This document shows, one piece after another, positions 14,312-32,420 of a stretch of DNA of 64,000 nt. Source of the stretch: Gemmatimonas sp. (lineage in GTDB: Bacteria; Gemmatimonadota; Gemmatimonadetes; Gemmatimonadales; Gemmatimonadaceae). Location of the stretch: the NCBI GenBank assembly GCA_965279375.1, contig OZ257156.1, forward strand, positions 4,416,001 through 4,480,000, given 5' to 3'. The stretch's first letter is position 1, and each line of letters opens with the position of its first letter. The position numbers and the translations under genes are program-made. The notes below the pieces were generated by a model that worked only from the letters and a program-made list of their open reading frames with translations, was not told the DNA's origin and did not search any database.

Positions 14312-14532
14312 GCGACTCGGTACGGGGAGACGGCGGAGATCGCTGAGAAACTACAGGCCGGACGGGGAATGTGCCCGGGCCGCCGATGGATAGTCATTCA
14401 TGAGTCGCTAATGCCGGCGTGGGACGAATACTCTCGACAGACTTCCTAACCAACCGTACGCTTCTCCCGTTGCGGTCTGCGGAAATAGCAGCTTCCCGGA
14501 CCCGGAAAATCCCGCATTGAGCGGAGGTATTC

Positions 14533-16038
14533 ATGCGCAGGGTACGAGGATGGGCCGCGGTGGCGGCTGTAGTCGCAATGACGGCGCCGATGGTTGGCGT
14601 GAATGCTCAGCAGGTGGCGCCAAAAGTCACGCTATTCGGCGGCGGCGGAGTAGCGTCGTACAAGGACTGGCCCGGCACCACGCTCAGAGTCGATCAGGAT
14701 GCGTACGTGACGGTGTTTGCGGTGACGCGTGGGCGTCGGGATTTCCCGATCGCCGTGCTGTCGCCGACCTCTCCGGGCAGCACGAACAAGTTGAAGGCCG
14801 GTCGCAAGTACGGCGTGCGTTCGCTCACGTCCACGCAATTGCTGCATCTGGTGGATTACGGTGAAGCGCCGATCGTGGTGGCGTTGGCGTCGACGAGCCG
14901 CCCGAATCTCGAGGCGTTCATGGACCGCGGTGGATGGGGAAGCGATCTGCTCGTCTCCGACAGCACTGTCGTCGACGTGCAGGGGCTGGTGAAGGCTTTG
15001 GCGCAAGCGGCGTATCCCGCTGGCTCGGCATACACGGCCGAAGTGCAGACGCCGTCGAATCCCATTCCGACCTCGTATCGCGCGTCCACGTGGCAGTTCG
15101 AGCAGCCGTGCGGTGGTCAGACTTCGCAGATCGAGGCGGATCGTCAGCGCGTTGCGTTTCTCTCGGGGTACGGGACCGATCTGACCATCTCGGAGGCGCA
15201 GAACTTTCTGTACCTGATGGGCGGCGTGCAGGGCGGACTGATCCCGGGAACGCCGTATCTGGTGTCTGGTGGAAACCGCGTCAGCATTGAGCCGTCACGC
15301 ACCTACATCGGTTCGCTGAGCGGATGCAGCGGGTATCGCGTCGCCTGGTGGCCGCGCGTGATCATCCCGCCCTCGCAGCCGACGCTGCCGGCGGGTCCGG
15401 CGCGGCTGCCGGCAGACACGGCCATCGCACCAGTGACCGACCGGGTGCGCGTGGGCCAGATCGAAGAAGTCGGGCAGCCGCGTCGCGGTGGGATCGAGGA
15501 GTTGGGACCGACGCGTTCCGGGCCGATCGACATGGACGGCGGCACGCGCCAGCCGCGTGAGCGCGTTGCGCGTGTCGTGGAGGATCCGGAGGCGTCAGCC
15601 TGGCGTCGCGGCGAAACCGGCAGTGAGCGTCGGTTCCCGGACGTACGCGACGTGCGTCGCGAGCGAGTGGCCGAGCAGTCGCTGGACGCGCAGGCGATTC
15701 TCTCCGAACTGCAGCGCGGTTCGCGTAACCGCACGATCGACGCGGGCACAGGCGTCATGGGTTCCGATGGCCGCATTCAGGTTCGCGCGGCTGCGCAGAA
15801 CGCCGGTGCGGAGATTCAGACTGCCAAGGAACGGGCCTGGATCGAAAACAACCAGACCAACACCAATCGCACCGCAACCGCTCCGGAGAACCGTCGGCGG
15901 GAGCGGGTGATCGAGGATGGGGCGCAGGTGCATGTGGCCCCGCCTGCTCCGGTCGCAGCCCCTGCACCGGCCCCGGTGATTCCGACGCCTGCACCTGCCC
16001 CGGTGCCGCCGCCGGCCAACGGCAAGCCGATTTCCTGA
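14533..16038 (+). CDS. Secreted hypothetical protein (possible DUF4384-like N-domain, disordered/Pro-rich C-terminus)
   Basis: GGAGG RBS; signal peptide ending VNA-Q; paralogous to the next gene. Confidence 0.7.
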   Translation: MRRVRGWAAVAAVVAMTAPMVGVNAQQVAPKVTLFGGGGVASYKDWPGTTLRVDQDAYVTVFAVTRGRRDFPIAVLSPTSPGSTNKLKAGRKYGVRSLTSTQLLHLVDYGEAPIVVALASTSRPNLEAFMDRGGWGSDLLVSDSTVVDVQGLVKALAQAAYPAGSAYTAEVQTPSNPIPTSYRASTWQFEQPCGGQTSQIEADRQRVAFLSGYGTDLTISEAQNFLYLMGGVQGGLIPGTPYLVSGGNRVSIEPSRTYIGSLSGCSGYRVAWWPRVIIPPSQPTLPAGPARLPADTAIAPVTDRVRVGQIEEVGQPRRGGIEELGPTRSGPIDMDGGTRQPRERVARVVEDPEASAWRRGETGSERRFPDVRDVRRERVAEQSLDAQAILSELQRGSRNRTIDAGTGVMGSDGRIQVRAAAQNAGAEIQTAKERAWIENNQTNTNRTATAPENRRRERVIEDGAQVHVAPPAPVAAPAPAPVIPTPAPAPVPPPANGKPIS

Positions 16039-16088
16039 TCGCGATCAACGCGCCGGCCATCGCACGAGCCGGTGGGAGCGGTGCAAGA

Positions 16089-16904
16089 ATGAAGACGGTT
16101 CGATCCGTCCGTGCGGCGCGAAATGTGGTGGTGAGCTTGCTGCTTGGCGCGGCGAGCTCCCCGCTGCATGCGCAGACGTCCTCGCGTGCAACAGAGGTCC
16201 CGAATCTCCGGTTGCAGGGCGTTGGTGGGGTGCGCTCCTTGGTGGACCTGAGCGGCGTATCCGTGTCGGTGGACAGCACCGCGTACGTGGCGGTCTTCTT
16301 ACTGTCCCCCGGGATGAGGGAATCCCCGTTGCAGGTGATCTCGCCGGCCACTCCGGCGACGTCGAGTCAACTCGCCGCGGGGCGTCGGCAGCGCACGTTG
16401 CCGCTCGCTGCGAGCGCGTTGCTGCGTCAGAGCTCGGCGGGCGAACCGATCATCGTCGCATTCGTCTCGACGGTGCAACCGAACCTGGACGTATTCCGGG
16501 ACGGGGATCGGTGGGCCACCGACCTGGTCGTGACCGACACTGCGGCCGCAGCGCCGTCTGCCTTGGTGCAGTCATTGGCCACGGCGCTGTTCGGAGTCGC
16601 GGCCACGCGTGGCGTTGTCGCGCCATATCGCGTCATGGTGCAGCAGCTCTCGTCTGCCCTGCCGCTCAACCGGTACGGCGGCGTGCCGTCCGCGTCCGAA
16701 TGTCTGTCGGAAATCGTGCGCACGGGCTGGTCGCCCGCCTTCGCGGAGAACTACGGCAACAGCGGCGAACTTCGACCGTTAGATGGCGGAAGCGGAGGCT
16801 GCAGCGGATACCGGGTGGACTGGGTCGCGCCGGCGCCTTCTGCTGGATCGAGCGCGGGCGCATCGGCTCAACCGCCCGCCCCTCGGGGATCGGGAAAGCC
16901 GTAG
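16089..16904 (+). CDS. Secreted hypothetical protein, paralog of the upstream gene
   Basis: Signal peptide ending LHA-Q; shares AYVxVF, PIxVA, PNL and GCSGYRVxW motifs with 14533-16038. Confidence 0.7.
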   Translation: MKTVRSVRAARNVVVSLLLGAASSPLHAQTSSRATEVPNLRLQGVGGVRSLVDLSGVSVSVDSTAYVAVFLLSPGMRESPLQVISPATPATSSQLAAGRRQRTLPLAASALLRQSSAGEPIIVAFVSTVQPNLDVFRDGDRWATDLVVTDTAAAAPSALVQSLATALFGVAATRGVVAPYRVMVQQLSSALPLNRYGGVPSASECLSEIVRTGWSPAFAENYGNSGELRPLDGGSGGCSGYRVDWVAPAPSAGSSAGASAQPPAPRGSGKP

Positions 16905-16948
16905 GCGAGCCGGGCGGAAACGGCATCCGATGCCGTCGCGTTTGAGGC

Positions 16949-16983
16949 AAAGGCGAGCGCCCGAGGACGGCGGTCGCCTTTTT
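16949..16983 (+). terminator. Intrinsic terminator
   Basis: AAAGGCGA...TCGCCTTT stem ending in a T run. Confidence 0.55.
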
Positions 16984-17007
16984 CGTGGGTGATCCCGCTA
17001 TCTTCCC

Positions 17008-18840
<1,833 letters not shown>

Positions 18841-18847
18841 CCACGTC

Positions 18848-19876
18848 GTGGTCTCCGCCGTCCTGCAAACCAGCTTTCTTGGGGACATGATCCTCACCAC
18901 GCCCCTGCTCGCGCGACTCGCCGAGCGGGGGCGTGTTGTCGTGGTGGCCACGCCGGCTAACGCAGCGTTGCTGACGAATCATCCGGCGGTGTCGGATGTC
19001 ATCGTCTTCGACAAGCGCGGAGCAGATCGCGGGGTGGGCGGCGTACTGCGCGTGGCGCGAGCGTTGCGCGCGACGGGTGCGGAGCGCGCGTACATCGCGC
19101 AAGGCTCGATGCGCACGGCGGCCCTCGCTCGACTGGCCGGCATTCGGGAGCGCGTGGGCTTCGAGACATCACCGGGGCGCGTGCTGTACTCCGCGCGCGT
19201 GCCCTTCCGCCGCGAGCTGCATCACGCACAGCGTTTGTGGCAGCTGGCGTCGGCGCGCGACGACGCGAGCGCGCCGCGCGTGCGTCCGTCGCTGTTTCCG
19301 AGTCACGGTGATCGGATGTCGGTATCGCGCTTGCTGGAAGCGCACGCGATCGACGCGACCACGCCGTTTGTCGTGTTGGCCCCCGGGAGCGTGTGGGCCA
19401 CCAAACGCTGGCCATCGTTCGACGCGCTGGCAGCGGCGTTGGCGTTGCACCCAGCACTGCAGGAGCATCGCGTCGTCGTGATCGGCGCAGCGGGCGACGC
19501 ACCGCTCGCACGGGCGATTGGCGAGTCGTTGGCAGCGGCCGGTGCGCCTCCGGCGGTTGATGCGACCGGCAAGCTGTCGCTGCTGGGCTCCGCCGCGCTG
19601 CTCAGCCGCGCGCGCGGGCTGGTGACCAACGACTCCGCGCCGCTACATCTCGCCTCGGCGATGGATACGCCCACCGTCGCGCTGTTTGGGCCGACGATTC
19701 CAGCCTTTGGCTTTGGGCCGCTGGCATCGCGCACGAGCGTCTTCGAACAGACCACGCTCGAATGTCGGCCGTGCCATGCGCATGGTCCGCAGCGCTGCCC
19801 GTTGGAGCACTGGCGGTGCATGCGCGATAGCAGCGCCGATCAGGTTGCCTCAGCGCTGGTGGCGCTCACGCGCTGA
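18848..19876 (+). CDS. Glycosyltransferase family 9 (LPS heptosyltransferase-like)
   Basis: LGDMILTTP, APGSVWATKRW, VTNDSAPLHLASA, ALFGPT, C-terminal Cys cluster. Confidence 0.9.
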   Translation: MVSAVLQTSFLGDMILTTPLLARLAERGRVVVVATPANAALLTNHPAVSDVIVFDKRGADRGVGGVLRVARALRATGAERAYIAQGSMRTAALARLAGIRERVGFETSPGRVLYSARVPFRRELHHAQRLWQLASARDDASAPRVRPSLFPSHGDRMSVSRLLEAHAIDATTPFVVLAPGSVWATKRWPSFDALAAALALHPALQEHRVVVIGAAGDAPLARAIGESLAAAGAPPAVDATGKLSLLGSAALLSRARGLVTNDSAPLHLASAMDTPTVALFGPTIPAFGFGPLASRTSVFEQTTLECRPCHAHGPQRCPLEHWRCMRDSSADQVASALVALTR

Positions 19877-19891
19877 GGCCGCGCTGGGCGA

Positions 19892-21058
19892 TCAGTACCT
19901 GAACGCCGATCTGAGTCGCTGCCACCACTGCTCGTCGAACGCCGACGCCGCCGCCGGGTTGCCGCCGTTCGGATCGGCTTCCTCGCCGTGTCGCACGACC
20001 ACGAGTTCGAGGCTCGGGATCACGTAGATCTTCTTGTCGCCCTTGCCGAGCGCAGCGACGAGATCGCGCGGTGCAGAGGGAAAGAGCGAGCCTTGCTGCG
20101 TCGGCAAGATATACGGTCCTGGGAGGCGGTACGTGCTGCTGCCGTTGAGCCACCACAGGTAGCCGTAGCCCGCGTTATCCGGTGGGGCCTGACGCCACGC
20201 CGTCGCGAACCAGGCGCTGTCGGCGAGGATCTGCGTGCCGTTCCATCGTCCACGATTGAGCGCGAGCAGGCCGTAGCGCGCCATGTCGCGCGCGCTGCAA
20301 CTCAGGATCAGCCCCGGCTCGCCCATGTCGATGTTCAGACGCCAGTTGGCCGTAGCCATGCCGATGCGGTCGAAGAGCAGCGCCTTCGACGCTGCCGTCA
20401 CTGACTGTCCCGAGGCCTCGGACACGACGCCGAAGAGCTGGTAGTAGGCGGGATTGTTGTAGTAGAACCGGTTGCCGGGAAGCGCGACGAACTTGAGCGA
20501 ATCGTCGAGGCCGAAGCTCATGCTGAGCAGGTGTCGCACGGTGATGCGCGCTTCGGTGCTGGGGCTACGCGACCAGCCCGTGCCTAGATATTTCGCGGCG
20601 CTGCTGTCGAGCGAGATGCGTCCCTGTCGTGCGAGCTCTCCCACGAGCGAGCTCACTACCGACTTGCCGGCCGAAGCGATGATCGAGTCCTTCGTCGCGG
20701 TCCAGCCGTTCCAGTATCGCTCCGCGACGATCCGTCCGCGCCAGAGCACCACCACCGCTGTCGAACGTTGCGTGCCGGCCCAATCGAGCGCCGAGCGCAG
20801 GGCCGCGGTGTCGAAGCCCAGACGCGCCGGTGCAATCGTGTCCCAGCTCGCGTCGCCGAGCGGTGGGAAGTAGGCCGGCAGCGTTCGAGGATCGACGGGC
20901 GTTGGCGTTGGGGTGGTTGGGGTGCTGGGCGTCGTCGGAGTGGTCGGCGGTGTGACCGGCGCGCTGGTGGGCGTTTCACCGCGGCAGGCGACGAGCAGGG
21001 CGACCCCAAAGGGCGCGAGGGCGCGGAGGGCGAGGCGGAGGCTATGGGAGCGGCGCAT
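19892..21058 (-). CDS. Serine hydrolase (beta-lactamase class C-like), predicted lipoprotein
   Basis: Lipobox LVAC; SAGK (SxxK); ITVRHLL; YYNN; YGYLWW; Pro/Thr linker. Confidence 0.88.
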   Translation of the reverse strand: MRRSHSLRLALRALAPFGVALLVACRGETPTSAPVTPPTTPTTPSTPTTPTPTPVDPRTLPAYFPPLGDASWDTIAPARLGFDTAALRSALDWAGTQRSTAVVVLWRGRIVAERYWNGWTATKDSIIASAGKSVVSSLVGELARQGRISLDSSAAKYLGTGWSRSPSTEARITVRHLLSMSFGLDDSLKFVALPGNRFYYNNPAYYQLFGVVSEASGQSVTAASKALLFDRIGMATANWRLNIDMGEPGLILSCSARDMARYGLLALNRGRWNGTQILADSAWFATAWRQAPPDNAGYGYLWWLNGSSTYRLPGPYILPTQQGSLFPSAPRDLVAALGKGDKKIYVIPSLELVVVRHGEEADPNGGNPAAASAFDEQWWQRLRSAFRY

Positions 21059-21152
21059 GCCCCAGTGGACGACCCGGTCGCGAGCGCGTTAACGGTCCGT
21101 TCCGCGTGGGTCCGCTGGCGTCACAGGCGACCGACGGCATTATGTTTGCCCC

Positions 21153-22139
21153 ATGCCTCATAACTCACTCTTTGTCGGCGTCGATCTGGGCGGCACGAAC
21201 ATCGTCGTCGGCGCGATGTCGGACGACGGTTCCCACCAGTTCGGCATGCACAGCGAGCCCACCCGCTCCGAGGAGGGCGCGGAGGGTGTCATCGCCCGGA
21301 TGGCGCGCATGGTGGAAGCCACCATCACCACGGCGATGCGCGAAACGGGCGCTGAGCGCAGCGCCTTCAAGGGCGTGGGTATCGGCGCGCCGGGTCCACT
21401 CGATCGCGCCAAGGGGATCGTGAAGGTCGCGCCGAACCTCAAGTGGAACGACGTCCCGCTGCGCGACCGCATGACGGAGCTGACCGGACTTCCCGCCGCC
21501 ATCGACAACGACGCGAATTGCGCGACGTATGGCGAGTGGTGGATCGGTGCAGCGCGCGGTGGACGCAATGTTGTGGGCATCACGATCGGCACGGGGATCG
21601 GCGGCGGACTGATCCTCGACGGCCAGCTGTATCACGGTTCGAGCGACATGGCCGGCGAACTTGGCCACATCACGATCGACCAGAACGGTCGTCGCTGCGG
21701 CTGCGGCAACTACGGCTGCCTCGAAGCGTATGCGTCCGGTCCGGCCATCGCCGAGCGTGCACGCGAAGCGCTGGCGTCGGATGGCAGCTCGATTCTGCTG
21801 TCGCTGGTGGACGGCGATGCGTCGCGCATCACGGCGCAGTCGGTGTACGACGCGTCGGCGCGCGGCGATGCGGTGGCGAGGGATGTGGTGCGCGACACGG
21901 CGCGCTTTCTGGGCATGGGCATCGCCAACCTGCTCAACATTTTCAATCCCGACGTCGTCGTGGTCGCGGGTGGCGTGACGCAGGCCGGCGACGCGCTCTT
22001 CGAGCCGATGCGCGCAGAAGTGCGTCGTCGTGCGTTCCGTCCAGCCGTCGAGGCGTGCCGGATCGTGCCCGGCGAATTGCCCGGCAATGCGGGCGTCGTG
22101 GGCGCGGTGGCGGCCTTCCGAGCGCAGATGGTCTCGTGA
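21153..22139 (+). CDS. ROK family sugar kinase (glucokinase-like)
   Basis: GVDLGGT, DNDANCA, GTGIGGG, GELGH, CGCGNYGCLE. Confidence 0.93.
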   Translation: MPHNSLFVGVDLGGTNIVVGAMSDDGSHQFGMHSEPTRSEEGAEGVIARMARMVEATITTAMRETGAERSAFKGVGIGAPGPLDRAKGIVKVAPNLKWNDVPLRDRMTELTGLPAAIDNDANCATYGEWWIGAARGGRNVVGITIGTGIGGGLILDGQLYHGSSDMAGELGHITIDQNGRRCGCGNYGCLEAYASGPAIAERAREALASDGSSILLSLVDGDASRITAQSVYDASARGDAVARDVVRDTARFLGMGIANLLNIFNPDVVVVAGGVTQAGDALFEPMRAEVRRRAFRPAVEACRIVPGELPGNAGVVGAVAAFRAQMVS

Positions 22140-23194
22140 CGACTGCGGTGCCGGAGCAAGCGACGGCGGAGGTCACGCCGCCGCGACGTCGTCGGGTGGG
22201 CGTGATCGGCAGCATGTGTTGGGATGTGATCCACGGTCGGGACAAGCGCGAAGTGCCCATCGAGGAATGGGGGGGCATTTCGTATTCGCTCTCGGGACTC
22301 GATGCCGCGCTCACCGACGACTGGGAAATCGTTCCGCTCATCAAGGTCGGCGACGATCTGGTGGACAAGGCACGCGCCTACATCCGGCAGTTGCGTCACA
22401 TCGCGCCCGACGCCGAACTGATCGCGGTTCCCTACCCCAACAATCGCGTCGAGCTGCGCTATCTCGACGATGAACGGCGCAGCGAGATTCTCTCGGGTGG
22501 CGTGCCCGCGTGGACGTGGGTGGCGCTCAAGCCGGTGCTCGATGCGGCGCGACTCGATGCGCTCTACATCAACTTTCTGAGTGGCTGGGAGCTCGATCTG
22601 CCCACCACGCAGATGGTGCGGGCGCACTTCGCGGGGCCGATCTACTGCGATCTGCACATGAAGATCTTTGCCGTGCAGCCCGATGGTCTGCGCGTCATGC
22701 GGCCGCTGCCGAACGTGGCAGAGTGGTGCGCCTGCTTCGATGTGCTACAGGTGAACGAAGACGAGATGAGCATGATGGCGCCCGATCCGATGGCGCTCGC
22801 GGCGACGGCGATGGCGGCCGGCTGCTCGTGCTTGTGCGTCACGCTTGGCAAACGCGGTGCGGTGTACGTCGCCGCGCCCAATGTGGAAACACTGCGCGAC
22901 CTGCCATTGCGTGATGTACCGGGTGCGCTGTCGACGGGATCGCGCGGGAGCGCCGGTACACTTGGTGCTGTTCGTACGGCCATCATCCCCTCGGTACCAC
23001 CGCGCATCGATGGGCCCGGCGATCCCACCGGCTGTGGTGATGTGTGGGGTTCCACCCATTTCTCTCGACTGCTCGCGGGTGATAACTTTGCGGATGCGAT
23101 CGCGGCTGCGAATCGCGCGGCGTCGCGCAACGTGGAGCATCGCGGAGCGAGTGGGTTGGCGAATCATCTTCGAGGGGAGCTCAGCGCGTCGTGA
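22136..23194 (+). CDS. PfkB/ribokinase-family carbohydrate kinase
   Basis: GTG start overlaps the ROK stop; WGGI, NEDE, VTLGKRG, DPTGCGDVW signature. Confidence 0.85.
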   Translation: MTTAVPEQATAEVTPPRRRRVGVIGSMCWDVIHGRDKREVPIEEWGGISYSLSGLDAALTDDWEIVPLIKVGDDLVDKARAYIRQLRHIAPDAELIAVPYPNNRVELRYLDDERRSEILSGGVPAWTWVALKPVLDAARLDALYINFLSGWELDLPTTQMVRAHFAGPIYCDLHMKIFAVQPDGLRVMRPLPNVAEWCACFDVLQVNEDEMSMMAPDPMALAATAMAAGCSCLCVTLGKRGAVYVAAPNVETLRDLPLRDVPGALSTGSRGSAGTLGAVRTAIIPSVPPRIDGPGDPTGCGDVWGSTHFSRLLAGDNFADAIAAANRAASRNVEHRGASGLANHLRGELSAS

Positions 23195-24135
23195 CCACCG
23201 TCATCAGCGTGCCGCAGTCGCTCGACGAGCCAGCGTTCGAATACATCTTCGAGCAGCTCGCGGCCGTTCCGCTGGGCGCGAAGATTCTGGTGGACGCGCG
23301 TCACGCACGCTGGGCCTCGCCATACGGACTCACGGCGCTGCTGTGTGTGGCGCAGTCGCGAGAAGAGCGCATGAGCTTCGCGGTGCCGGAGAGTGCAGAC
23401 GTGCTGTCGTATTGGTCGCGTGCCGGATTCTTCCGCTACGCCTCCGAGCTGTACGAATTGCACGGTACGGTGCCGCGTCCGCGTGAAGCGCACGAGTCGG
23501 ATGTGCTGCTCGAGATCACGCCCATCGTGAAGACCGACGACGTGCACGGCGTGGTGGGTCGCATTCAGCAAAAGGCCGCGGACATTCTGCATGGCCAGTT
23601 GAATCTCGATACGGCCATCACCGGTGCGTTCGGCATGACGCTCAGCGAATCGTGTCAGAACATCGTCGAGCACGCGGGGCACGGCGGGTGGGTCGCGGTG
23701 CAGTCGTACAACTACACCAAGCGCCTTGGCCGACGCGTCGTGGTGATCGCGGTGTGCGATGCGGGAATCGGCTTTCGCAAATCCCTGGAGAGCGCGCCCG
23801 GACATCGGCACAGCGATCGGTGGGATGACGCGATGGCGCTCGAGGACGCCGTGCTGCGTGCCGTCAGCCGCTTTCGTCATGGCGACAAAGGGCGTGGGCA
23901 GGGGTTGGCCGGCATTCGTCGCTTCGTGGGGCGCTGGCACGGCAAGCTGACCGTGCGCAGCGGCACCGCGCGCATCGCGATTTCTCCGGGCTGGGACGAG
24001 GACGTACCGATGACCGAGTCGCTCCCCGAGTTCCCCGGCACGCAGATGCAGATCACGATCCCGGCCAAGATCGGCGAATCGGCGCCACAGGCCCGCACGG
24101 GTGCGAGCACGCGTCCTCGGCCGCGCACGCCATGA
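23191..24135 (+). CDS. STAS-like domain + GHKL/HATPase anti-sigma-type kinase (CapK-like)
   Basis: N-terminal ILVDARHARWASPYGL; N-box LSESCQNIVEHAG, G1 CDAGIG, G2 GRGQGL, G3 PGT. Confidence 0.8.
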   Translation: MTTVISVPQSLDEPAFEYIFEQLAAVPLGAKILVDARHARWASPYGLTALLCVAQSREERMSFAVPESADVLSYWSRAGFFRYASELYELHGTVPRPREAHESDVLLEITPIVKTDDVHGVVGRIQQKAADILHGQLNLDTAITGAFGMTLSESCQNIVEHAGHGGWVAVQSYNYTKRLGRRVVVIAVCDAGIGFRKSLESAPGHRHSDRWDDAMALEDAVLRAVSRFRHGDKGRGQGLAGIRRFVGRWHGKLTVRSGTARIAISPGWDEDVPMTESLPEFPGTQMQITIPAKIGESAPQARTGASTRPRPRTP

Positions 24136-24145
24136 CGTGCTTCCT

Positions 24146-24703
24146 ATGAGCCTGGAAATCGACGTCAGCACCGTCCTGCGCGGCACGGTGTGCGACCTGT
24201 ACTCGAATCTCGTCACGCGTCCGACTGGCGCCGCCGTTCGGACCGCCATCGAGCGGCAGGTGTTTGAGATCGGAACGCCGGTTGTGACGACGATCGATTT
24301 TTCGCAGGTGAACCTGCTCGACTTTTCCTGCGCCGACGAGATCGTGGCCAAGCTGCTGCTCCGCTACATCGACAGCGACGGCCCCACGGGCTACCTGCTC
24401 TTCCGCGGCATCACCGAGGAACATCTCGATCCCATCGAGGTGGTACTGGAGCGGCACGCGCTGGCGTTGGTCGCCTTGTTCGACGGCATGGCCGAGTTGT
24501 ATGGCGTGGTGACCGAGGACGAACGGCTCCACTGGGAGGCGGTGCGCGACCACGGCCCTGTGACGACTGGCAACGTTGCGTCGTTGCTAGGGATCGAGCA
24601 CGACATCACCGCGCAGCACCTGGATCGCCTGCGGCAACGCCGGCTGTTGATGCATCACGCACACGGATTTGCGGTCCCTGGTACCGCCACGGAGGTCACA
24701 TGA
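24146..24703 (+). CDS. STAS-like (DUF4325-type) + winged-helix protein (CapS-like)
   Basis: LVTRPTG...IDFSQVNLLDFSCADEIVAKL; C-terminal HTH-like VTTGNVASLLGIEHDITAQHLDRLRQRRLL. Confidence 0.7.
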   Translation: MSLEIDVSTVLRGTVCDLYSNLVTRPTGAAVRTAIERQVFEIGTPVVTTIDFSQVNLLDFSCADEIVAKLLLRYIDSDGPTGYLLFRGITEEHLDPIEVVLERHALALVALFDGMAELYGVVTEDERLHWEAVRDHGPVTTGNVASLLGIEHDITAQHLDRLRQRRLLMHHAHGFAVPGTATEVT

Positions 24704-25029
24704 TTCCGACAGGCAAATCGAACCGGAACCCCAAGGGCTTCGGTAGTTACTCGCCGCCGCTGCTCGTCGCCGGTTTCATCTCCACGCGCAGCGGCGACGC
24801 TGAACGCGGGCCGCTGATCCGCATGCGCTCCGACGATGCCGCGTTGCGCCTCATCAGCGACCACGAGCTGGTTCGCATCGTGACCGATCGCCGTCAGGAG
24901 CTGGCTGAGCTGCGCCTCGATGACACGCTGCGTCGTGGCGAGGTGGTGTTGCGCGATGTGGTGGGTGCGTCGATCAGTGAGGTCATCCGCGTCGTCAAGC
25001 TGGATACCGACGCCGGCACGCGCGCGTGA
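24700..25029 (+). CDS. Small hypothetical protein, possible double-psi beta-barrel fold
   Basis: ATGA and GTGA overlaps on both sides; GGAGG RBS; PLIRMRSDDAALRLISDHELVRIVT...DDTLRRGEVVL resembles Molydop_binding/CDC48_N patterns. Confidence 0.65.
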   Translation: MIPTGKSNRNPKGFGSYSPPLLVAGFISTRSGDAERGPLIRMRSDDAALRLISDHELVRIVTDRRQELAELRLDDTLRRGEVVLRDVVGASISEVIRVVKLDTDAGTRA

Positions 25030-26069
25030 GCGAAGTCGGCGACGCCGTTCGCGGTGACGCTCGTGTGAACGCTCATGCCGATGCGCGTGCGACGGTGGCA
25101 GTACATGGCGGACGCGTCGAGCAGCGACTGGCGGCGCTGGAGCAGGCAGAAGCGGCGATCGTGCTGAGCAGTGGTATGGCCGCGTTGACGTGCACGATGC
25201 TGGCGCTGCTGCGTGCCGGCGATCATGTGGTGGCCGGCAGCTGGCTGCACGACGAGGCGCGCCGATTTTTCCAGCATGAACTGCCCAATCTTGGCATCGA
25301 CGTGACCTTCGTCGACCCCACGGAGGCGCGCGGCTGGCGCCGTGCGACTCGCGGCAACACGCGCCTGTTTTTCGTGTCATCGCCGGTCAATCCGACCACG
25401 CGCGTCGTCGATCTCAATCCCCCGCGCCTGCTCGCGCAGGAACTCGGCATCGCATTGGTGGTCGATGCCACGTTCGCCAGCCCGATCGCCTTCCGGCCGC
25501 TCGAGCAAGGCGCGGACGTGGTGATTCACTCGGGTGCGGTCTATTTGCACGGTGAGTTCGGGCTGCACGCCGGCGTCGTCTGTGGCGCGGAGGCGGTGAT
25601 CGACGAAGTGCAGGACAAGATGGCCGTCTGGGGACACGCCCCCGATCCCGTCACAGTGGATTCACTGGGCCGCAGTCTCAAGACGCTCGAGATTCGCGTG
25701 CGTCGGCAGTGCGAGAACGCCGCGCAGATTGCGCAGTGGGCCGAGGCTCGTCCACAGAGTGCGCGCGTGCTCTATCCCGGGCTCGCGTCACACCCGGATC
25801 ACGCGATCGCCTCCACCACACTCGACGCTTTTGGCAGCATGATTCTGATCGAGCTGGCCCCGCCGCTCTCTGCGGCCTCGCTCGTGTCGCAGCTGCGCCT
25901 GTTCCGCGACACGCCGACACTGGGCGGCGTGGACTCGCTGGCGTGTGCCATCAGCGAGCGGGCCGTGCGCCTGGCCGTTGGTGTGGAAGACGCGGGTGAC
26001 CTGATGCGGGATCTCGAGCAGGCCATCGAGCACGTAGTCGAGCACGCAGTCGAACGGACGTCGGAGTAG
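25026..26069 (+). CDS. Cys/Met metabolism PLP-fold protein lacking the Schiff-base lysine
   Basis: SSGMAA, NPT, VVDATFASP, GADVVIHS, YPGL, LGGVDSL, RLAVGVED; HSATK is replaced by HSGAV. Confidence 0.85.
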   Translation: MSEVGDAVRGDARVNAHADARATVAVHGGRVEQRLAALEQAEAAIVLSSGMAALTCTMLALLRAGDHVVAGSWLHDEARRFFQHELPNLGIDVTFVDPTEARGWRRATRGNTRLFFVSSPVNPTTRVVDLNPPRLLAQELGIALVVDATFASPIAFRPLEQGADVVIHSGAVYLHGEFGLHAGVVCGAEAVIDEVQDKMAVWGHAPDPVTVDSLGRSLKTLEIRVRRQCENAAQIAQWAEARPQSARVLYPGLASHPDHAIASTTLDAFGSMILIELAPPLSAASLVSQLRLFRDTPTLGGVDSLACAISERAVRLAVGVEDAGDLMRDLEQAIEHVVEHAVERTSE

Positions 26070-26072
26070 CGC

Positions 26073-26783
26073 GTGGCGGGCATTCTTCGTCTCACCAGGG
26101 TGACCAAGGAGTATCCGCGGTCGGGTGTCGCGCTGCGCGATGTGTCGTTCGAATTGGCGAAGGGCGAGTTTCTCTTTCTCGCTGGCCACAGCGGCGCGGG
26201 CAAGAGCACGCTGCTCAAGCTGCTCTCCATGGCCGAACGCCCAACGATCGGGGAAGTGAAGATCTCCGGCTATTCGTCGGCGACGCTCAAGGACCGCGAG
26301 CTTCCCAAGCTGCGACGCAAACTGGGGATCGTCTTCCAGGATTTCCGTCTGCTCCCCGACCGCACGGCCGAACAAAACGTGGCCTTCGCGCTGGAAGTGA
26401 CGGGCGCGCCGCATGCATCCATCAGTCCCAAGGTTGCACGCTTGCTCACCCAAGTCGGACTCGCGTCCAAGGCGACTGCCTTTCCGCACGAGCTCTCCGG
26501 CGGTGAACAGCAACGCGTCGCGATTGCGCGAGCGCTGGCCAACGATCCGTTCGTGCTGCTGGCCGACGAGCCCACGGGCAATCTCGACGACCGCGCGACG
26601 CGTGGCATCTTCCAGCTGCTGCGCGAGATCAACGCCTCGGGTACGGCTGTGCTGATGGCGACGCACGACGTGTCGCTGATCGAGTGGAGCGGGCTGCGTT
26701 TTCTCGAACTGGACAAGGGCGAGCTCGCGTACGACGGTGACGATGCCGCGCGATTGGTGGCCGATCTCCGAGGCCGTCGATGA
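26073..26783 (+). CDS. ftsE: Cell division ATP-binding protein FtsE
   Basis: GHSGAGKST, LRRKLGIVFQDFRLL, LSGGEQQRV, ADEPTGNLD. Confidence 0.95.
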   Translation: MAGILRLTRVTKEYPRSGVALRDVSFELAKGEFLFLAGHSGAGKSTLLKLLSMAERPTIGEVKISGYSSATLKDRELPKLRRKLGIVFQDFRLLPDRTAEQNVAFALEVTGAPHASISPKVARLLTQVGLASKATAFPHELSGGEQQRVAIARALANDPFVLLADEPTGNLDDRATRGIFQLLREINASGTAVLMATHDVSLIEWSGLRFLELDKGELAYDGDDAARLVADLRGRR

Positions 26784-27640
26784 GGCTCGCCTGGCGCGAA
26801 GTCGTGCTCGCCTTTCGTCGCGCGCCGGTGTTGGCGCTATTGGGCATCACCACGATCGCCTTTTCGCTGTTCGCGTTCGGGTTGTTCGGGCTGGTGGCGA
26901 TCAACCTGCGCACGGCACTGCTGGAAGTTGAAGACCGCGTAGAGATCCGCGCGTTCCTCGTGGCGCGCGTCGGCGACGACATCGTCAGCGGTATAGTGCA
27001 GACGATGCAGAAGCAGCCGGAAGTGCTGGACGTGGGCTATGTGAGCCCGGACTCCGCGCTGCAGCGCGCGCGCAGCGAGCTGGCGGAGTTCCGCGACGTG
27101 ATGGACAGCTCGGTGCTGCCCGGGTCCATCGAAGTGCGCCTGCGCGCCGGCTCGCGCGATCCGCAAACGGTCAAGCGCATCTCCAACCGGCTGCAGGCGT
27201 TTCCGCAGGTGGAGGATGTGCGCTACGGTCGCGAATGGGTGGAGAAGCTGTATCGCATTCGCACGATAGCCGGCGTGGCCGGCACCGGACTCGCCGTGGT
27301 GTTCGCGATGGTGGCCGTGATCATCATCGGTGCCACCATCCGTATGGCCATTCTAGCGCGCACACGCGAGATCGAGATCATGCGCATGGTCGGCGCCACC
27401 AACGGCTTCGTGCGCTTGCCGTATCTGATCGACGGTCTGCTCAAAGGGCTCGCCGGCGGCGCCATCGCGGTCGGCATGGCGTACGCCGCCAACAGCGTGA
27501 TTTCGCGCTATCTAGTGGCCACTCAGTTCTTCACGCTCGAACAGATCGCGATGGGCGTGCTGGCAGGCGCCTGCATCGGATTTGTGGGCAGCTGGATTTC
27601 GGTGGGCCGCCAGCTGAAACAGGTCTGGCGCGACGCGTGA
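26780..27640 (+). CDS. ftsX: Cell division permease FtsX
   Basis: Four TM segments, periplasmic loop, REIEIMRMVGATNGFVRLP. Confidence 0.93.
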   Translation: MRLAWREVVLAFRRAPVLALLGITTIAFSLFAFGLFGLVAINLRTALLEVEDRVEIRAFLVARVGDDIVSGIVQTMQKQPEVLDVGYVSPDSALQRARSELAEFRDVMDSSVLPGSIEVRLRAGSRDPQTVKRISNRLQAFPQVEDVRYGREWVEKLYRIRTIAGVAGTGLAVVFAMVAVIIIGATIRMAILARTREIEIMRMVGATNGFVRLPYLIDGLLKGLAGGAIAVGMAYAANSVISRYLVATQFFTLEQIAMGVLAGACIGFVGSWISVGRQLKQVWRDA

Positions 27641-28890
27641 GCACGTTGCGCGTGCACACGACCGGCGTGGGCCTTGGACGGCTCCGCGCCGCGGCCGTCG
27701 TCGTGCTGGGTACGCTCGCTCTCTCCGTGAGCGCACCGGTCGGCTCGGCGCAGCAGCCGCCGGCCACGGCGACCACCGATGCACGCCTTCGCCAGCAGCA
27801 GGACGAGCTCGACAGGCTGCGCCGAGAGCGCAGCACGCTCGAGCGGCGCATGGAAGAGTTGCAGCGGAGCGCACGCACACTCGCGGATGAAGTCATGAAT
27901 CTCGAGGCGCAGCGCGTCACCACGCTGCGGCTCGTGGAAGCGCTCGACCGTCAGCTCAGTACCATCACGCGCGAAGTGACCAACGCGAACGAAGGGATGG
28001 TGCAGGCGGAGCAGGAGCTATCCTCGAAGAAGGGCATCCTCCACCGGCGCATGGTGGACATCTACAAGCGTGGCAGTCTGTACGATGTGGAGGCGATGCT
28101 CTCGGCACAGAGCTTCGCGTCGCTGGTGGCGCGCTACAAATATCTGCACGAGCTCACCCTGCACGATCGCACGCTCGTGCGCCGCGTGGAGGCACTGCGC
28201 AACAAGATCGCCGCGCAACGCCAGCTACTCGTGCGCTTGCAGGAAGAGATCACGTGGAACCGCGCGGAAAAGTCACGTGAAGCGCAGCGTCTCCGTGATC
28301 TCGAGGGCAACCGCAAGCGCAATCTCACCGTCGTGCAGCGCACCACCGAGCAGACGCGCGATCGGCTGACGCAACTGGCGCGCGACGAGTCGCGTGTAGC
28401 AGGAGTGATCGCGGCGTTGGAAACCGCGCGCCGCCGCGCCGAGATGGCCCCCAATGCGCGTCCAGCGGCGCCATCGAGCATTCGTACGTCGGATCTGGGA
28501 CGCCTCGACTGGCCGGTGGATGGCACGATCCTCTATCGCTTCGGTCGTGTGGTGAACCCCAACAACACCACGACCCGCTGGAACGGCGTCGGCATTGGGA
28601 CGGCAGTGGGCAGTGCGGTGCACAGCATCGCGGCTGGCGAAGTCGTGCTGGCGGACAACGTCGGTACCTATGGTCCGACCGTCATCGTGCAGCATGGTGG
28701 TGGCGACTATTCGGTGTACGGCTCGCTCTCGCGCATCGATGTGCGGAAGGGACAGGAGATCACCAAGGGGCAAACGATCGGCGCCGTTGGCGCGACCGAT
28801 CCGGACCTGCCGCCGCATCTGCACTTCGAGATCCGCCCCAAGGGACGCGCCGTCGATCCGCTCGAATGGCTGCGCAGTCAGCGTCGCTGA
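27637..28890 (+). CDS. envC: Murein hydrolase activator EnvC family (coiled coil + M23/LytM)
   Basis: GTG start overlaps the ftsX stop; signal peptide; long coiled coil; LDWPVDG, WNGVGI (degenerate HxxxD), LHFEIR. Confidence 0.88.
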   Translation: MSTLRVHTTGVGLGRLRAAAVVVLGTLALSVSAPVGSAQQPPATATTDARLRQQQDELDRLRRERSTLERRMEELQRSARTLADEVMNLEAQRVTTLRLVEALDRQLSTITREVTNANEGMVQAEQELSSKKGILHRRMVDIYKRGSLYDVEAMLSAQSFASLVARYKYLHELTLHDRTLVRRVEALRNKIAAQRQLLVRLQEEITWNRAEKSREAQRLRDLEGNRKRNLTVVQRTTEQTRDRLTQLARDESRVAGVIAALETARRRAEMAPNARPAAPSSIRTSDLGRLDWPVDGTILYRFGRVVNPNNTTTRWNGVGIGTAVGSAVHSIAAGEVVLADNVGTYGPTVIVQHGGGDYSVYGSLSRIDVRKGQEITKGQTIGAVGATDPDLPPHLHFEIRPKGRAVDPLEWLRSQRR

Positions 28891-28912
28891 CGACGCGACT
28901 GCTGGCGTGGGC

Positions 28913-28989
28913 GTTGATTCGGTGACGGTTCGCTGTTGATTCAAGCGTGACTCCACCCCGAGTCAACGTCGATTCGACCGCGACTTCCC
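28913..28989. repeat. Tandem array of seven degenerate palindromic 11-mers (consensus GTYGANTCRAC)
   Basis: GANTC at 28916, 28938, 28949, 28960, 28971 and one-mismatch copies at 28927 and 28982, all on an 11-bp lattice. Confidence 0.75.
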
Positions 28990-29000
28990 ACGCCCTGATC

Positions 29001-30002
29001 ATGCCCGCCAAGAAATCCGCCGCCAAGTCGCCTGCTGCGACGCCCGCCGCCAAGAAGGCCACCGCCAAGAAGGCCGCCGCCAAGAAGGCCTCGCCCAAAG
29101 CGCCGCCGATCACCGCACCCATTACTGTCGATGCGGGCGACGCCGCGGCCGACCGTGCGCCGCTCGGCGCGCACGTCTCCATCGCCGGTGGAACCTGGGA
29201 AGCGGCCGCGCGCGCGCGCGAGATCAGCGCGACGGGCTCACAGATCTTCACCAAGCAGGCCAATCGCTGGCTGGAACGCGACATCGAACCCGCCGAAGCG
29301 ACGCAGTACACCACGGCGATGCGCGAGACGACAGTACGCTGGACGTGCGCGCACGATTCGTATCTCATCAACCTCGCGTCGCCCGACGCCGAGCTTCGCG
29401 CGCGCTCGACAGAAAGCTTCCGCGCGGAACTGCGCCGCTGCCATGCACTCGGACTCGATGCGCTCGTCTCGCATCCCGGCAATTTCATGGACGATCGCGC
29501 GAGCGGCATCGCGCGCAACGCCGACGGCATCACGCAGGCGCTGGAAGCGGAGCACGGACCGACACGGCTGCTGATGGAGCTCACCGCAGGACAGGGCACG
29601 GTGCTGGGCAGCACCTTCGAAGAAATGGCCGAGCTGCTGTCGCGCATTCCCGCAGCGCTGCGTAAGCGCGTGGGCGTGTGTCTGGACACGGCGCACGTCT
29701 GGGCCGCCGGCTACGACTTGATCACCGACTACGACGGCGTCATCGCCAAGTTCGACGACGTGATCGGCCTCGCACATCTGGGCTGCCTGCACCTCAACGA
29801 CTCCAAGGCCAAACTGGGCTCGCACCTCGATCGACACGAGTTGATCGCGGAGGGGACGATTGGCGGAGACGTCTTCCGCCGCATCATGACCGATGATCGG
29901 TTGGCGACAGTACCGAAGATCATCGAGACTCCGAAAGGCGATACGCCCGCCGAAACCGACGGGCGTATGCTCCGATTGCTGCGCTCCTACGCCGCGGGCT
30001 GA
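29001..30002 (+). CDS. nfo: Endonuclease IV with N-terminal AKK-rich extension
   Basis: LGAHVSIAGG, HDSYLINLAS, HPG, ELTAGQG, CLDTAH, HLNDSK, DRHE, IIETP. Confidence 0.95.
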   Translation: MPAKKSAAKSPAATPAAKKATAKKAAAKKASPKAPPITAPITVDAGDAAADRAPLGAHVSIAGGTWEAAARAREISATGSQIFTKQANRWLERDIEPAEATQYTTAMRETTVRWTCAHDSYLINLASPDAELRARSTESFRAELRRCHALGLDALVSHPGNFMDDRASGIARNADGITQALEAEHGPTRLLMELTAGQGTVLGSTFEEMAELLSRIPAALRKRVGVCLDTAHVWAAGYDLITDYDGVIAKFDDVIGLAHLGCLHLNDSKAKLGSHLDRHELIAEGTIGGDVFRRIMTDDRLATVPKIIETPKGDTPAETDGRMLRLLRSYAAG

Positions 30003-30029
30003 TCGCGGCGCAGGAGCGTCGAAGGCAGA

Positions 30030-32420
30030 TCAGTACATCAGCTTGTAGACGAGGCTGAGATTGCGCCCGGGGTTGTAGGCGAAGCTCTTGATGCGGCTCG
30101 TGGCATCGCGGTACTGCTTGTCGAGCACGTTGTCGGCGCGCAGCGTGATCGAGTGCACCATGCTACGCACGCTCACCAGCCACGTGGCGCTCAGGTTGAG
30201 GAGGGTGTACGCGTCCGTCGCGACATCAAGCTCGTCGCCGCTCACCTTCGTCTGGCTGAAGACCCGGCGCGCATCACCGCCGAACGACAGGCGGCCATTG
30301 TCGTAGCGCAGCGATGCGCCGAGTCGCCCCGCTGGGATGTACGGCAAGTCGCCTGAGCCATCGCGATACTGCGCGCGCGTGAAGTCGCCCATCACGCCGC
30401 CCACGAGTCGATGCACCAACTTGGTCTCCACCTGCCCTTCAATGCCGTACAGCTTTGCATCGGCTTGCGCGTAGTTGACCAGCGGCACCTGCGCATCGCC
30501 CTCCTGCACTTCGCCGACGGCACGAGGCAGGATGTAGCTATCGATCAGATTCAGGTACGTGCTGACCTGCGCGAACGCACGCGCGGACTGCGCGCGCAGT
30601 CCAGCCTCGAGCCCCGTGCTCTGTTCGGCCTTGAGGTTGGGATTGCCCTGATCGAAGGTGCCCACGGCCGCGTGGAAGCCGTTGGCGTACATCTCCTCAA
30701 CCGTGGGCGCGCGAAAGCCACGCGATGCGTTCGCCGTGAACGACACCTCGTGCGACACCGCGATGCTCACTCCGAGTGAGGCCGCGACGTTGTCGAAGCT
30801 CTTGGACTGCGCGGCGCCAAAACGCGCGACCTCGTCTACATCCTTGGGATCGGTGGTGATGGAGAAACGATCGTAGCGCGCGCCAAGCTGCAGACGCGGC
30901 GTGTGCTCTTCCACCGCCCCGGAACCGAGCGGCAATTCCTGATAGACGTAGGCGGCGACGTTGTTATTGCTCGCGCCTGGCGTGAACGCTTCTTCGCCAG
31001 TGGGGGTGTACTGCCGGAAGAGCCCCTGCACGCCGAACGCGCCGGTGCTGCGTCCGAACTTGGTGCGTCCGAGCACGTTCACCGTCTGCGTCTTGAGCGC
31101 GAAGTTCGTGCCGATCTCACCCGACGGTTCGATCTCATCGTGCGAGTACGACTGCGCGGTTCCATCGATGCGCAACGTCGCGATCGGGGCGAAGCCCGTG
31201 CTGATCGTGGACTGCAATGCCCCCATGCGGCGCACGCCATCCAGCGTGATCGCCTCGTCGCCTTCCGGATGTGGGAGGCCGTAGCGGAAATCCATCTGGC
31301 GATAGACCGCTCCGACCGACACGCGAGAACCCACGTAGCCGGCGCCGGCCGTGACGTTGTCCGTCTTGCCGTTGGTGTTGGGCTGCGTGCCACCGCCGCC
31401 AACGCGCATGTCGTCGAAGCTGCGGACGCCACCACGCGCGGTGAACGCGAGCCGCTGTGACAGCGGCACCGTAACGCCCGCTGAGACGACGCCGCCGGGC
31501 GTGACCGACTCGCCCTGCCCCATCACGTAGCCGGAAGAGCGCGACGGGATGTTGGTCGGGATGTCGTTGGAGATGACGTTGACGACACCACCTAACGCGT
31601 TGTTGCCGTACAGCAACGAGGCCGGACCGCGGATCACTTCGATGCGTTCCGCCGCACTGGGATCGACGGCGTTGAGGTGGTCCACCGCGGCCGACGAGAG
31701 GTCGCCGGCGCGCTCGCCGTCCTGCAGCACGAGGACGCGCTCGCCCGTGAGACCACGAATGACCGGCGCGCTGGCCATCGGGCCGTTGAAACGCGTGGCC
31801 ATGCCGGGCTCACCGGCCAATGTCTGGCCGATAGACGTGCTGAGGGCGCGCTGGAGTTCCTTGCCCGAGAGCTGGACCGTCGCCTGCGTGACGTTGAGCG
31901 GATCGGTGCCGGTGGGCGTCGCCGTGACGTTCACACTGGAGAGGCGTACCGTCGCGACGCGCATCGTGATGGTCACGCGCACATCCGGTCCGCTGGCGGC
32001 GACTGTCACCACTTCATGCGCGCTGAAGAAGCCGATACGAATCAGGTCGAGGTGATACGTGCCCGGCGCCAGATCACGCAGTGCAAACTCGCCGCGATCG
32101 TTGGTGGTGGCCACGCGGTTGGCACCGGCGACGACCACCTGCACGCTGCCCAACGGCGTCCCTGCGGTGTCGCGCACGACACCGAGTACCGCCGTCCCCT
32201 CGATGCGCGTGGTCGCGGCGGCCGCACGCGGGAGCGCGTCGGCGCGCGCGGTCCAGGCACCCGACACCCCGAGGACGAGCGCGAGGAACGCGGCGCGGCG
32301 ATATCCCGTGCGCGGTTGCGAAGCGAGGACGCGCGCGCGGGTGGTCAGCGCGGCGACAGGGATCGAGAGATATGCCAACAGTCGCCCGGTTCCATCCGGG
32401 CGCGCTGCGAAGTGCGACAT
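30030..32420 (-). CDS. TonB-dependent receptor with carboxypeptidase-regulatory-like N-domain (ZnuD-like)
   Basis: PVIRGL, RIEVIRGPASLLYG, FRAPTVEEMYANGFH, DNVLDKQY, terminal aromatic residue; start codon uncertain. Confidence 0.92.
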   Translation of the reverse strand: MSHFAARPDGTGRLLAYLSIPVAALTTRARVLASQPRTGYRRAAFLALVLGVSGAWTARADALPRAAAATTRIEGTAVLGVVRDTAGTPLGSVQVVVAGANRVATTNDRGEFALRDLAPGTYHLDLIRIGFFSAHEVVTVAASGPDVRVTITMRVATVRLSSVNVTATPTGTDPLNVTQATVQLSGKELQRALSTSIGQTLAGEPGMATRFNGPMASAPVIRGLTGERVLVLQDGERAGDLSSAAVDHLNAVDPSAAERIEVIRGPASLLYGNNALGGVVNVISNDIPTNIPSRSSGYVMGQGESVTPGGVVSAGVTVPLSQRLAFTARGGVRSFDDMRVGGGGTQPNTNGKTDNVTAGAGYVGSRVSVGAVYRQMDFRYGLPHPEGDEAITLDGVRRMGALQSTISTGFAPIATLRIDGTAQSYSHDEIEPSGEIGTNFALKTQTVNVLGRTKFGRSTGAFGVQGLFRQYTPTGEEAFTPGASNNNVAAYVYQELPLGSGAVEEHTPRLQLGARYDRFSITTDPKDVDEVARFGAAQSKSFDNVAASLGVSIAVSHEVSFTANASRGFRAPTVEEMYANGFHAAVGTFDQGNPNLKAEQSTGLEAGLRAQSARAFAQVSTYLNLIDSYILPRAVGEVQEGDAQVPLVNYAQADAKLYGIEGQVETKLVHRLVGGVMGDFTRAQYRDGSGDLPYIPAGRLGASLRYDNGRLSFGGDARRVFSQTKVSGDELDVATDAYTLLNLSATWLVSVRSMVHSITLRADNVLDKQYRDATSRIKSFAYNPGRNLSLVYKLMY

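Follow-up and report, generated by a model that had tools for sequence, protein, structure and literature searches.

The closest described relatives of the gene pair analysed here are CapK/CapS and VapKSC (Chambers et al., EMBO J 2026, PMC13373217; CapS structures 9Z71-9Z73, VapK/VapS/VapC structure 9Z7O). There, CapK/CapS is described as a DNA-damage switch of phage-defence genes, carried by mobile, immune-linked modules, with an adjacent immune or stress operon in 348 of 443 cases; the N-terminal helix-turn-helix (HTH) of CapK was dispensable in a deletion test, and activation by single-stranded DNA (ssDNA) is shown for CapK and modelled only for VapK. The pair studied here lies in a 64,000-nt stretch of a Gemmatimonas sp. 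genome (the window; contig OZ257156.1, positions 4,416,001 to 4,480,000). It encodes a 314-aa STAS-GHKL serine kinase, CapK/VapK-like and without an N-terminal HTH (23191-24135, plus strand), and a 185-aa CapS-like protein in which a STAS domain is fused to a winged HTH (wHTH; 24146-24703, plus strand). On sequence grounds this pair is homologous to CapK/CapS; it agrees with CapK and VapK in the kinase-STAS core, yet lacks the features by which CapS would be recognised as a repressor. The best overall reading, which we hold with middling confidence, is a post-translational phospho-switch, possibly gated by ssDNA, that acts through a protein partner.

The kinase has a Pfam match to HATPase_c (E 1.5e-6). 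In its structure model (predicted local distance difference test, pLDDT, 91) residues 1-93 match STAS domains (Z 8.3-9.4), and residues 102-295 match SpoIIAB (1l0o) as the best fold (Z 14.8, root-mean-square deviation 2.5, 136 aligned), followed by RsbW-type proteins (Z 11.9), the SiaB-SiaC chain (Z 10.2) and histidine-kinase domains (Z about 10). The STAS domain begins at residue 1, and both an N-terminal HTH and a histidine-phosphoacceptor (DHp) region are absent; single-sequence searches of the Protein Data Bank gave nothing significant. Across 81 sequences the N-box (E153/N157/H161), the G1 box D190-x-G192-x-G194, the lid R235-G236-x-G238 and G283 are 100% conserved, E153 and N157 being the predicted catalytic residues. 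The model of the second protein (pLDDT 94) matches the STAS domain of RsbS (Z 10.2) and many wHTH domains (Z about 10), the wHTH covering about residues 120-180. Its predicted phospho-acceptor, Ser61, is conserved in 100% of the 81 sequences.

With E. coli CapK and CapS as references, taken from a capK-capS-Bub locus, HHalign aligned the kinases over 270 columns (probability 96.6, E 5.4e-10), the CapK alignment starting at residue 63, and the STAS-wHTH proteins with a probability of 45.7 (E 2e-4), S61 falling on S54. Plasmid-borne HTH-less pairs of Nostoc and Janibacter score above the E. coli pair. These plasmid kinase and STAS-wHTH pairs (L113:4004-5524; L115:3941-5420) keep CapS-type N/K residues, and the Janibacter pair is divergent from a ThiF gene; a related kinase on a Bradyrhizobium plasmid (L114:4031-4987) has no annotated STAS gene after it. 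The first-pass annotation of this DNA, made from its letters, had called both reading frames at the coordinates given above, had read the kinase as a SpoIIAB/RsbW-like enzyme with an N-terminal STAS segment, GHKL boxes and no DHp region, had pointed to a candidate acceptor serine and had likened the pair to CapK/CapS; all of this stands. Its description of the second protein as a DUF4325-type STAS segment plus wHTH holds for both folds and not for the label, since the protein has no Pfam match at E 0.1 and DUF4325 is not reached directly (a sister protein, from the family introduced below, scores weakly to it, E 0.005).

Complex prediction, a check that the same annotation had proposed, favours interaction of the two proteins. 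The predicted kinase/STAS-wHTH complex has an ipSAE of 0.82, against 0.00 for the best control, and places Glu153 of the kinase in contact with Ser61; at least 97% of contacts recur between runs, and partner pLDDT is 87 or higher. The score mark applied is reached by 116 of 157 solved pairs and by 2 of 215 mismatched pairs. On the substrate side the listed interface comprises STAS residues 16-104 and no wHTH residues. We consider it very probable that the two proteins form a kinase-substrate pair. Candidate ssDNA-site residues of the kinase are the aromatic W41 and a basic hairpin, K177/R178/R181. Position 41 is W in 86% and F in 13% of sequences (99% W or F), all 23 sister kinases having F there; the hairpin is well kept (K/R177 84%, R178 97%, R181 96%). 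Read by eye, both elements match VapK F54 and K180/K181 in Table S2 of PMC13373217 when a 5-residue numbering offset is allowed. Whether ssDNA is still the input of the kinase is, on this analogy, evenly poised in our judgement.

The wHTH is best judged against a sister family, which was found from the 150 best profile matches: four of these had an intact-looking wHTH, and their profile led to 120 proteins and 80 metagenome loci (L198-L277), with taxon hints of Syntrophobacterales, Nitrospirota and Thermodesulfobacteriota. The sister kinases are 39% identical to ours on average, and the motifs LVTR and D-[YF]-S-C-A-D-E are common to both families. For comparison of the wHTH the STAS-only row (see below) was dropped and the sequences were de-duplicated at 80%, which reduced the Gemmatimonadetes set from 81 to 71 and the sister set from 199 to 65. 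At a STAS identity of 0.5-0.6, recognition-helix identity is 0.21 in Gemmatimonadetes versus 0.56 in the sister group, the sequence pairs compared not being independent. The median charge of the wHTH is -2 versus +4, and the wing spans 11 versus 18 residues, i.e. it is about 7 shorter. Sister proteins keep the T/R of CapS (T148/R149) in 98% and the wing glycine (CapS G170) in 96% of cases; none of these is kept in Gemmatimonadetes, in which the sister wing G-R is absent too. At the columns of the CapS DNA-contact residues N145, K151 and G169-G170, Gemmatimonadetes show A 15%/E 12%, D 32%/E 32% and D 23%/A 16%, respectively. The recognition helix is acidic, poorly conserved and variable even inside a genus. 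All four genomes of one genus (L059, L278-L280) have an intact kinase whose neighbour carries the STAS domain alone, in about 120 aa. At one of these loci (L280, among three newly fetched stretches) no pfkB match lies between ROK and kinase. Among 12 long homologues checked for fusions, two carry other domains.

The sister lineage also keeps a DNA site. Besides a basic, conserved wHTH, its loci bear a sigma70-type promoter with TTCAATTGAA between the two genes; at the Gemmatimonadetes loci both this promoter and the palindrome are missing. Of 53 de-duplicated sister upstream regions 16 contain the palindrome, against at most 4 in shuffles, and it directly follows a TTGACA...TA-x-x-x-T promoter. 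In 29 sister loci the gap from kinase to STAS gene measures 117-5563 nt, and 28 of the 29 have the palindrome core within it. Cargo of up to 5.5 kb, including restriction-modification genes, stands between promoter and STAS gene. Over all 80 sister loci we counted a close kinase in 29 (many others being too short to tell), rmuC, frequently on the downstream side, in 26 and restriction/methylase genes in 10-13. Exact TTCAATTGAA was found at 39/80 sister loci, at 0/160 Gemmatimonadetes loci and nowhere in the present genome (0.46 expected by chance), and the promoter-plus-operator pattern in 22/80 sister loci versus 0/121 class genomes. From the capKS layout we infer that the sister STAS-wHTH protein binds TTCAATTGAA; a literature search on the exact palindrome listed matches that are unrelated by title.

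In the window, the end of pfkB reaches 4 nt into the kinase gene, kinase and STAS gene are 10 nt apart, and the next gene starts 4 nt before the STAS-wHTH gene ends. A promoter scan of window positions 14000-31000 gave 0 sites (1.7 expected), and an Rfam scan of 8 loci found none. A de novo palindrome search around Gemmatimonadetes loci yielded nothing clearly above shuffles upstream of the ROK or Cys/Met gene; its peaks before the kinase gene and before the STAS gene lie in coding DNA. As judged by these comparisons, Gemmatimonadetes have jointly lost promoter space, palindrome, recognition-helix conservation and wing, and one genus the whole wHTH. The STAS-wHTH protein thus probably exerts no sequence-specific repression, and the de-repressor role implied by the first-pass annotation was not borne out, given a wHTH that is devoid of the features and the operator kept by sister proteins and the STAS-only form in four genomes of one genus. 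Because both the DNA-reading features and the DNA site are lost, signalling by protein contact appears likely.

By its distribution, the pair is a fixed part of the core genome of a large lineage. The STAS-wHTH gene is present in 280 of 301 phylum genomes, some of them incomplete and one (G155) unpublished: the genome under study and 279/279 of eight families (f1-f8), against 0/3 of family f9 and 0/18 of other classes; two genomes gave two matches each. A kinase profile search returned orthologue-level matches in 0/18 f9, 0/1 f13 and 0/17 other-class genomes, three f9 genomes giving distant matches near 1e-11, compared with 1e-137 or better in two positive controls. Universality in the class was dropped when further f9 genomes proved to be without the pair, which is instead core to a sub-clade, the eight Gemmatimonadetes families. 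This agrees with the earlier suggestion of domestication. By sequence comparison, inheritance within Gemmatimonadetes is vertical: 27 Gemmatimonadetes rows group with a support of 100 in a quick kinase tree that largely follows families. The named homologues of the two proteins are Gemmatimonadota proteins, and no island is visible in the GC content.

Synteny was surveyed in 16-kb stretches for 80 of 150 listed matches, picked for long contigs and family spread. Kinase and STAS gene are both present in 80/80 loci, adjacent in 77 and separated by at most 43 nt in 77; around them lie pfkB (75 loci), lepA (74), ROK (73), the Cys/Met gene (63), ftsE and ftsX (45 each) and nfo (32). In five of six f9 stretches pfkB stands directly before the Cys/Met gene, i.e. 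the site is empty (the sixth stops at a contig edge), and 11 outgroup stretches held no profile match to kinase or STAS gene. In a LepA tree, 23 pair-positive rows form one branch (support 99) apart from f9, f13 and another class. The empty site in the outgroup family is most simply read as the state before a single ancient insertion, made into a string of housekeeping genes that is older than the pair; the neighbours need not be targets. Two arrangements depart from the common one. In family f8, three of four loci (L090-L092) have a gene between kinase and STAS gene, one of them (L090) also with a repeat-rich spacer; by its motif, the inserted gene looks like a cyclophilin. A single genome carries two loci (L281/L283), both lacking the Cys/Met gene and having ftsE as the first gene past the STAS gene; one copy is truncated, and bin contamination is possible.

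The order of genes in the window is lepA, GT9, a gene on the opposite strand, ROK, pfkB, kinase, STAS-wHTH, double-psi-barrel, Cys/Met pyridoxal-phosphate (PLP) enzyme, ftsE, ftsX, envC-like and nfo, all but the one gene on the plus strand. The ROK-family sugar kinase (21153-22139) belongs to the older lepA-(GT9)-ROK-pfkB backbone, and the PfkB-family sugar kinase (22136-23194), found also in pair-less genomes, forms the left flank of the presumed insertion site. To the right follow a 109-aa double-psi-barrel (Molydop_binding-like) gene (24700-25029), whose start overlaps the STAS-wHTH stop, the Cys/Met PLP-enzyme homologue as right flank (25026-26069), the ftsE-ftsX-envC-like genes (26073-28890) and nfo, encoding endonuclease IV (28947-30002). 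The Cys/Met homologue is without its PLP lysine in the window and in 5 of 7 same-genus loci (L032-L036), the lysine being kept in all 56 other copies examined; the lysine-less form is a candidate pseudo-enzyme or decaying gene. No PADLOC defence model matched the proteins of 8 flanking genes, in line with the first-pass statement that immune genes are not adjacent; the neighbours are housekeeping genes, and the kinase itself matches the DrmA model over its GHKL part only. Upstream of lepA, 14533-16904 encodes in tandem two proteins of 501 and 271 aa that are predicted to be secreted; their N-terminal parts look alike, and neither has a PADLOC match.

None of these neighbours recommends itself as the partner of the STAS protein, which is probably not a fixed neighbour. 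PfkB is not an obligatory target, as a homologue exists in 16 of 18 f9 genomes without the pair and was not found by this query in 2 of 5 pair-positive genomes. The Cys/Met lyase is an unlikely one, being near in 63/80 loci and having lost its PLP lysine while the same-genus kinase stays about 80% identical. The double-psi-barrel gene is restricted to one family (30/30 loci of the window's family, 0/50 others), and ftsEX does not track the pair.

The last point bears on the proposal of the first-pass annotation that the pair is a LexA-independent damage switch over ftsEX-envC and nfo, linking DNA damage to cell division. These genes do lie downstream, although ftsE is not the next gene, the double-psi-barrel and Cys/Met genes intervening. 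In its favour, ftsE/ftsX occur within 8 kb in 45/45 loci of the window's order, nfo within 8 kb in 32/80 loci, all of that order, and in the genome with two loci ftsE is both times the first gene past the STAS gene; furthermore, no LexA-type box precedes nfo in 32 loci. Yet the pair persists in 35 loci of other orders, with ftsE or ftsX near in none of them, the surrounding gene string exists without it, and within that string it has neither promoter space nor operator. Nor does the pair stand in for a missing SOS system, because lexA is found in 61/61 class genomes searched; recA is present in the genome under study. Of 30 lexA genes (L031, L290-L318), 29 are preceded by a putative LexA box, the direct repeat TTCGG-N6-TTCGG. 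Its matrix has 15 matches in the genome, among them those ahead of lexA, recA, uvrB and an imuA-like gene (C1:3875987, 4021901, 4072476, 5097755). It has no match in the window, and a box precedes the kinase in 1/80 loci; a literature search found no description of a Gemmatimonad LexA motif, judged by title. The word 'LexA-independent' fits the lack of a LexA-type box at this locus but would be wrong if taken to mean that the pair replaces SOS, and the proposed switch over cell division is very improbable.

Two further explanations deserve weight. The STAS-wHTH protein could chiefly inhibit or time the kinase, in the way that SpoIIAA acts on SpoIIAB, and the output would then lie in the kinase, which would bind or phosphorylate another protein, e.g. 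the genome's other STAS protein or a sigma factor. A large share of the invariant surface of the STAS protein falls within the interface predicted with the kinase, mean column identity is higher in the kinase (52%) than in the substrate (38%), and the wHTH is dispensable in one genus. Moreover, the genome's sole Pfam STAS match adjoins a SpoIIE-type phosphatase gene (C1:3984791-3987228), a locus that is a possible cross-talk or reset partner. However, the conserved kinase columns are largely common to the kinases of the sister family, which apparently act on a repressor, and no sigma factor gene was recognised among recurring neighbours, part of the neighbour clusters having no library annotation. 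We regard this explanation as rather unlikely, and as improbable the idea that the protein continues to repress transcription as CapS does, at operators that lie elsewhere in the genome, change fast and are specific to a lineage. The latter would account for a wHTH fold that is confidently modelled and kept in most genomes, and for R165 (79%), R166 (84%) and R170 (51%), which could touch the DNA backbone; it sits poorly with the acidic, variable recognition helix, the short wing, the palindrome search and the STAS-only form.

The phospho-switch reading has its own difficulties, and the following observations weigh against it. The CapS profile match is weak, and CapS is not among the listed Foldseek/VIA matches of the STAS-wHTH model. 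In the kinase, the CapK W68 column is occupied by Ser10 and is thus non-aromatic, and the VapK residues were matched by eye, not by a tool alignment. Loss of CapS N145/K151 proves little by itself, because these are not kept in the sister group either (T 75%, L 49%). The wHTH persists in 79/80 loci with a conserved core and the RR pair, so that residual nucleic-acid binding may survive. Neither a partner nor a lineage-specific conserved surface was found on the STAS protein, whose invariant residues are largely common to the sister group. Finally, the complex score may reflect likeness to the solved SpoIIAB-SpoIIAA complex, showing likeness rather than binding by this copy.

With this in view, the phospho-switch could have arisen and work as follows. 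The ancestor would have resembled the sister lineage, i.e. an autorepressor binding TTCAATTGAA, and would have entered the string a single time, at the junction of pfkB with the Cys/Met lyase gene, after which the pair would have come under the promoter of the host operon. By analogy with VapK/VapS, ssDNA in the STAS-GHKL groove would turn the kinase on, and phosphorylation of Ser61 would free or swap a partner on the same conserved STAS face. A bolder version, tentative and somewhat doubtful, is that a single capture brought in a DNA-damage regulator from a defence island, which then lost its DNA output and stayed in the core genome as a gene pair while the eight families radiated; it would now be an ssDNA-triggered, RecA/LexA-independent kinase controlling a core protein via a STAS adaptor, and the sister lineage with TTCAATTGAA would represent the ancestral state.

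CapK/CapS and VapKSC are described as mobile and immune-linked, whereas the pair reported here is single-copy and vertically inherited in a widespread, poorly studied lineage. It allows three states to be aligned, the empty site, the operator-bearing sister and the DNA-blind domesticated form, and it offers an operator prediction for a CapS branch not yet characterised, Ser61 as a defined acceptor and natural STAS-only variants. If the kinase is still gated by ssDNA, the lineage would have in its core genome a damage signal that works post-translationally, in parallel with an intact LexA system. The searched datasets of PMC13373217 contain no Gemmatimonadota row, the sole 'Gemmat' rows being Gemmata and Gemmataceae. 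Our literature search, outside which most subscription papers lie, found no paper on this Gemmatimonadetes branch and none on Gemmatimonas anti-sigma kinases, and for DUF4325 unrelated matches only. Gemmata and Gemmataceae belong to Planctomycetota.

In comparison with known systems, the pair resembles CapK/CapS in its order, a STAS-GHKL kinase followed by a STAS-wHTH protein, in the catalytic N157 (N218 in CapK), in the acceptor S61 (S54 in CapS) and in the same glycine at the STAS-wHTH junction. It differs in the missing N-terminal HTH of the kinase, the non-aromatic W68 column, the degenerate recognition helix and wing, the lack of a promoter or palindromic operator between the genes or after the STAS gene, and the lack of an adjoining immune operon, being core-genome and vertically inherited. 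With SpoIIAB/SpoIIAA and RsbW/RsbV it shares the top kinase folds, the E-x-x-x-N-x-x-x-H N-box and the D-x-S acceptor motif; unlike in those modules, the kinase bears a STAS domain of its own, the substrate bears a wHTH, and no sigma factor or phosphatase gene stands beside the pair in the window. SiaB/SiaC/SiaD of Pseudomonas aeruginosa, matched here by fold, differs in that no diguanylate cyclase or phosphatase gene is found at the present locus; SiaC is reported to bind an enzyme directly and thereby activate it (PMC8457831), which sets a precedent for an output other than transcription. From VapKSC the locus departs in having the double-psi-barrel and Cys/Met genes rather than a PIN/VapC gene after the pair, and a substrate that mostly retains its wHTH fold where VapS has a short C-terminal helix. 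VapKSC nevertheless shares an HTH-less STAS-GHKL kinase and, by eye, an aromatic residue before an x-x-P motif together with a basic hairpin, and its output by protein contact is the precedent for how we read the present pair.

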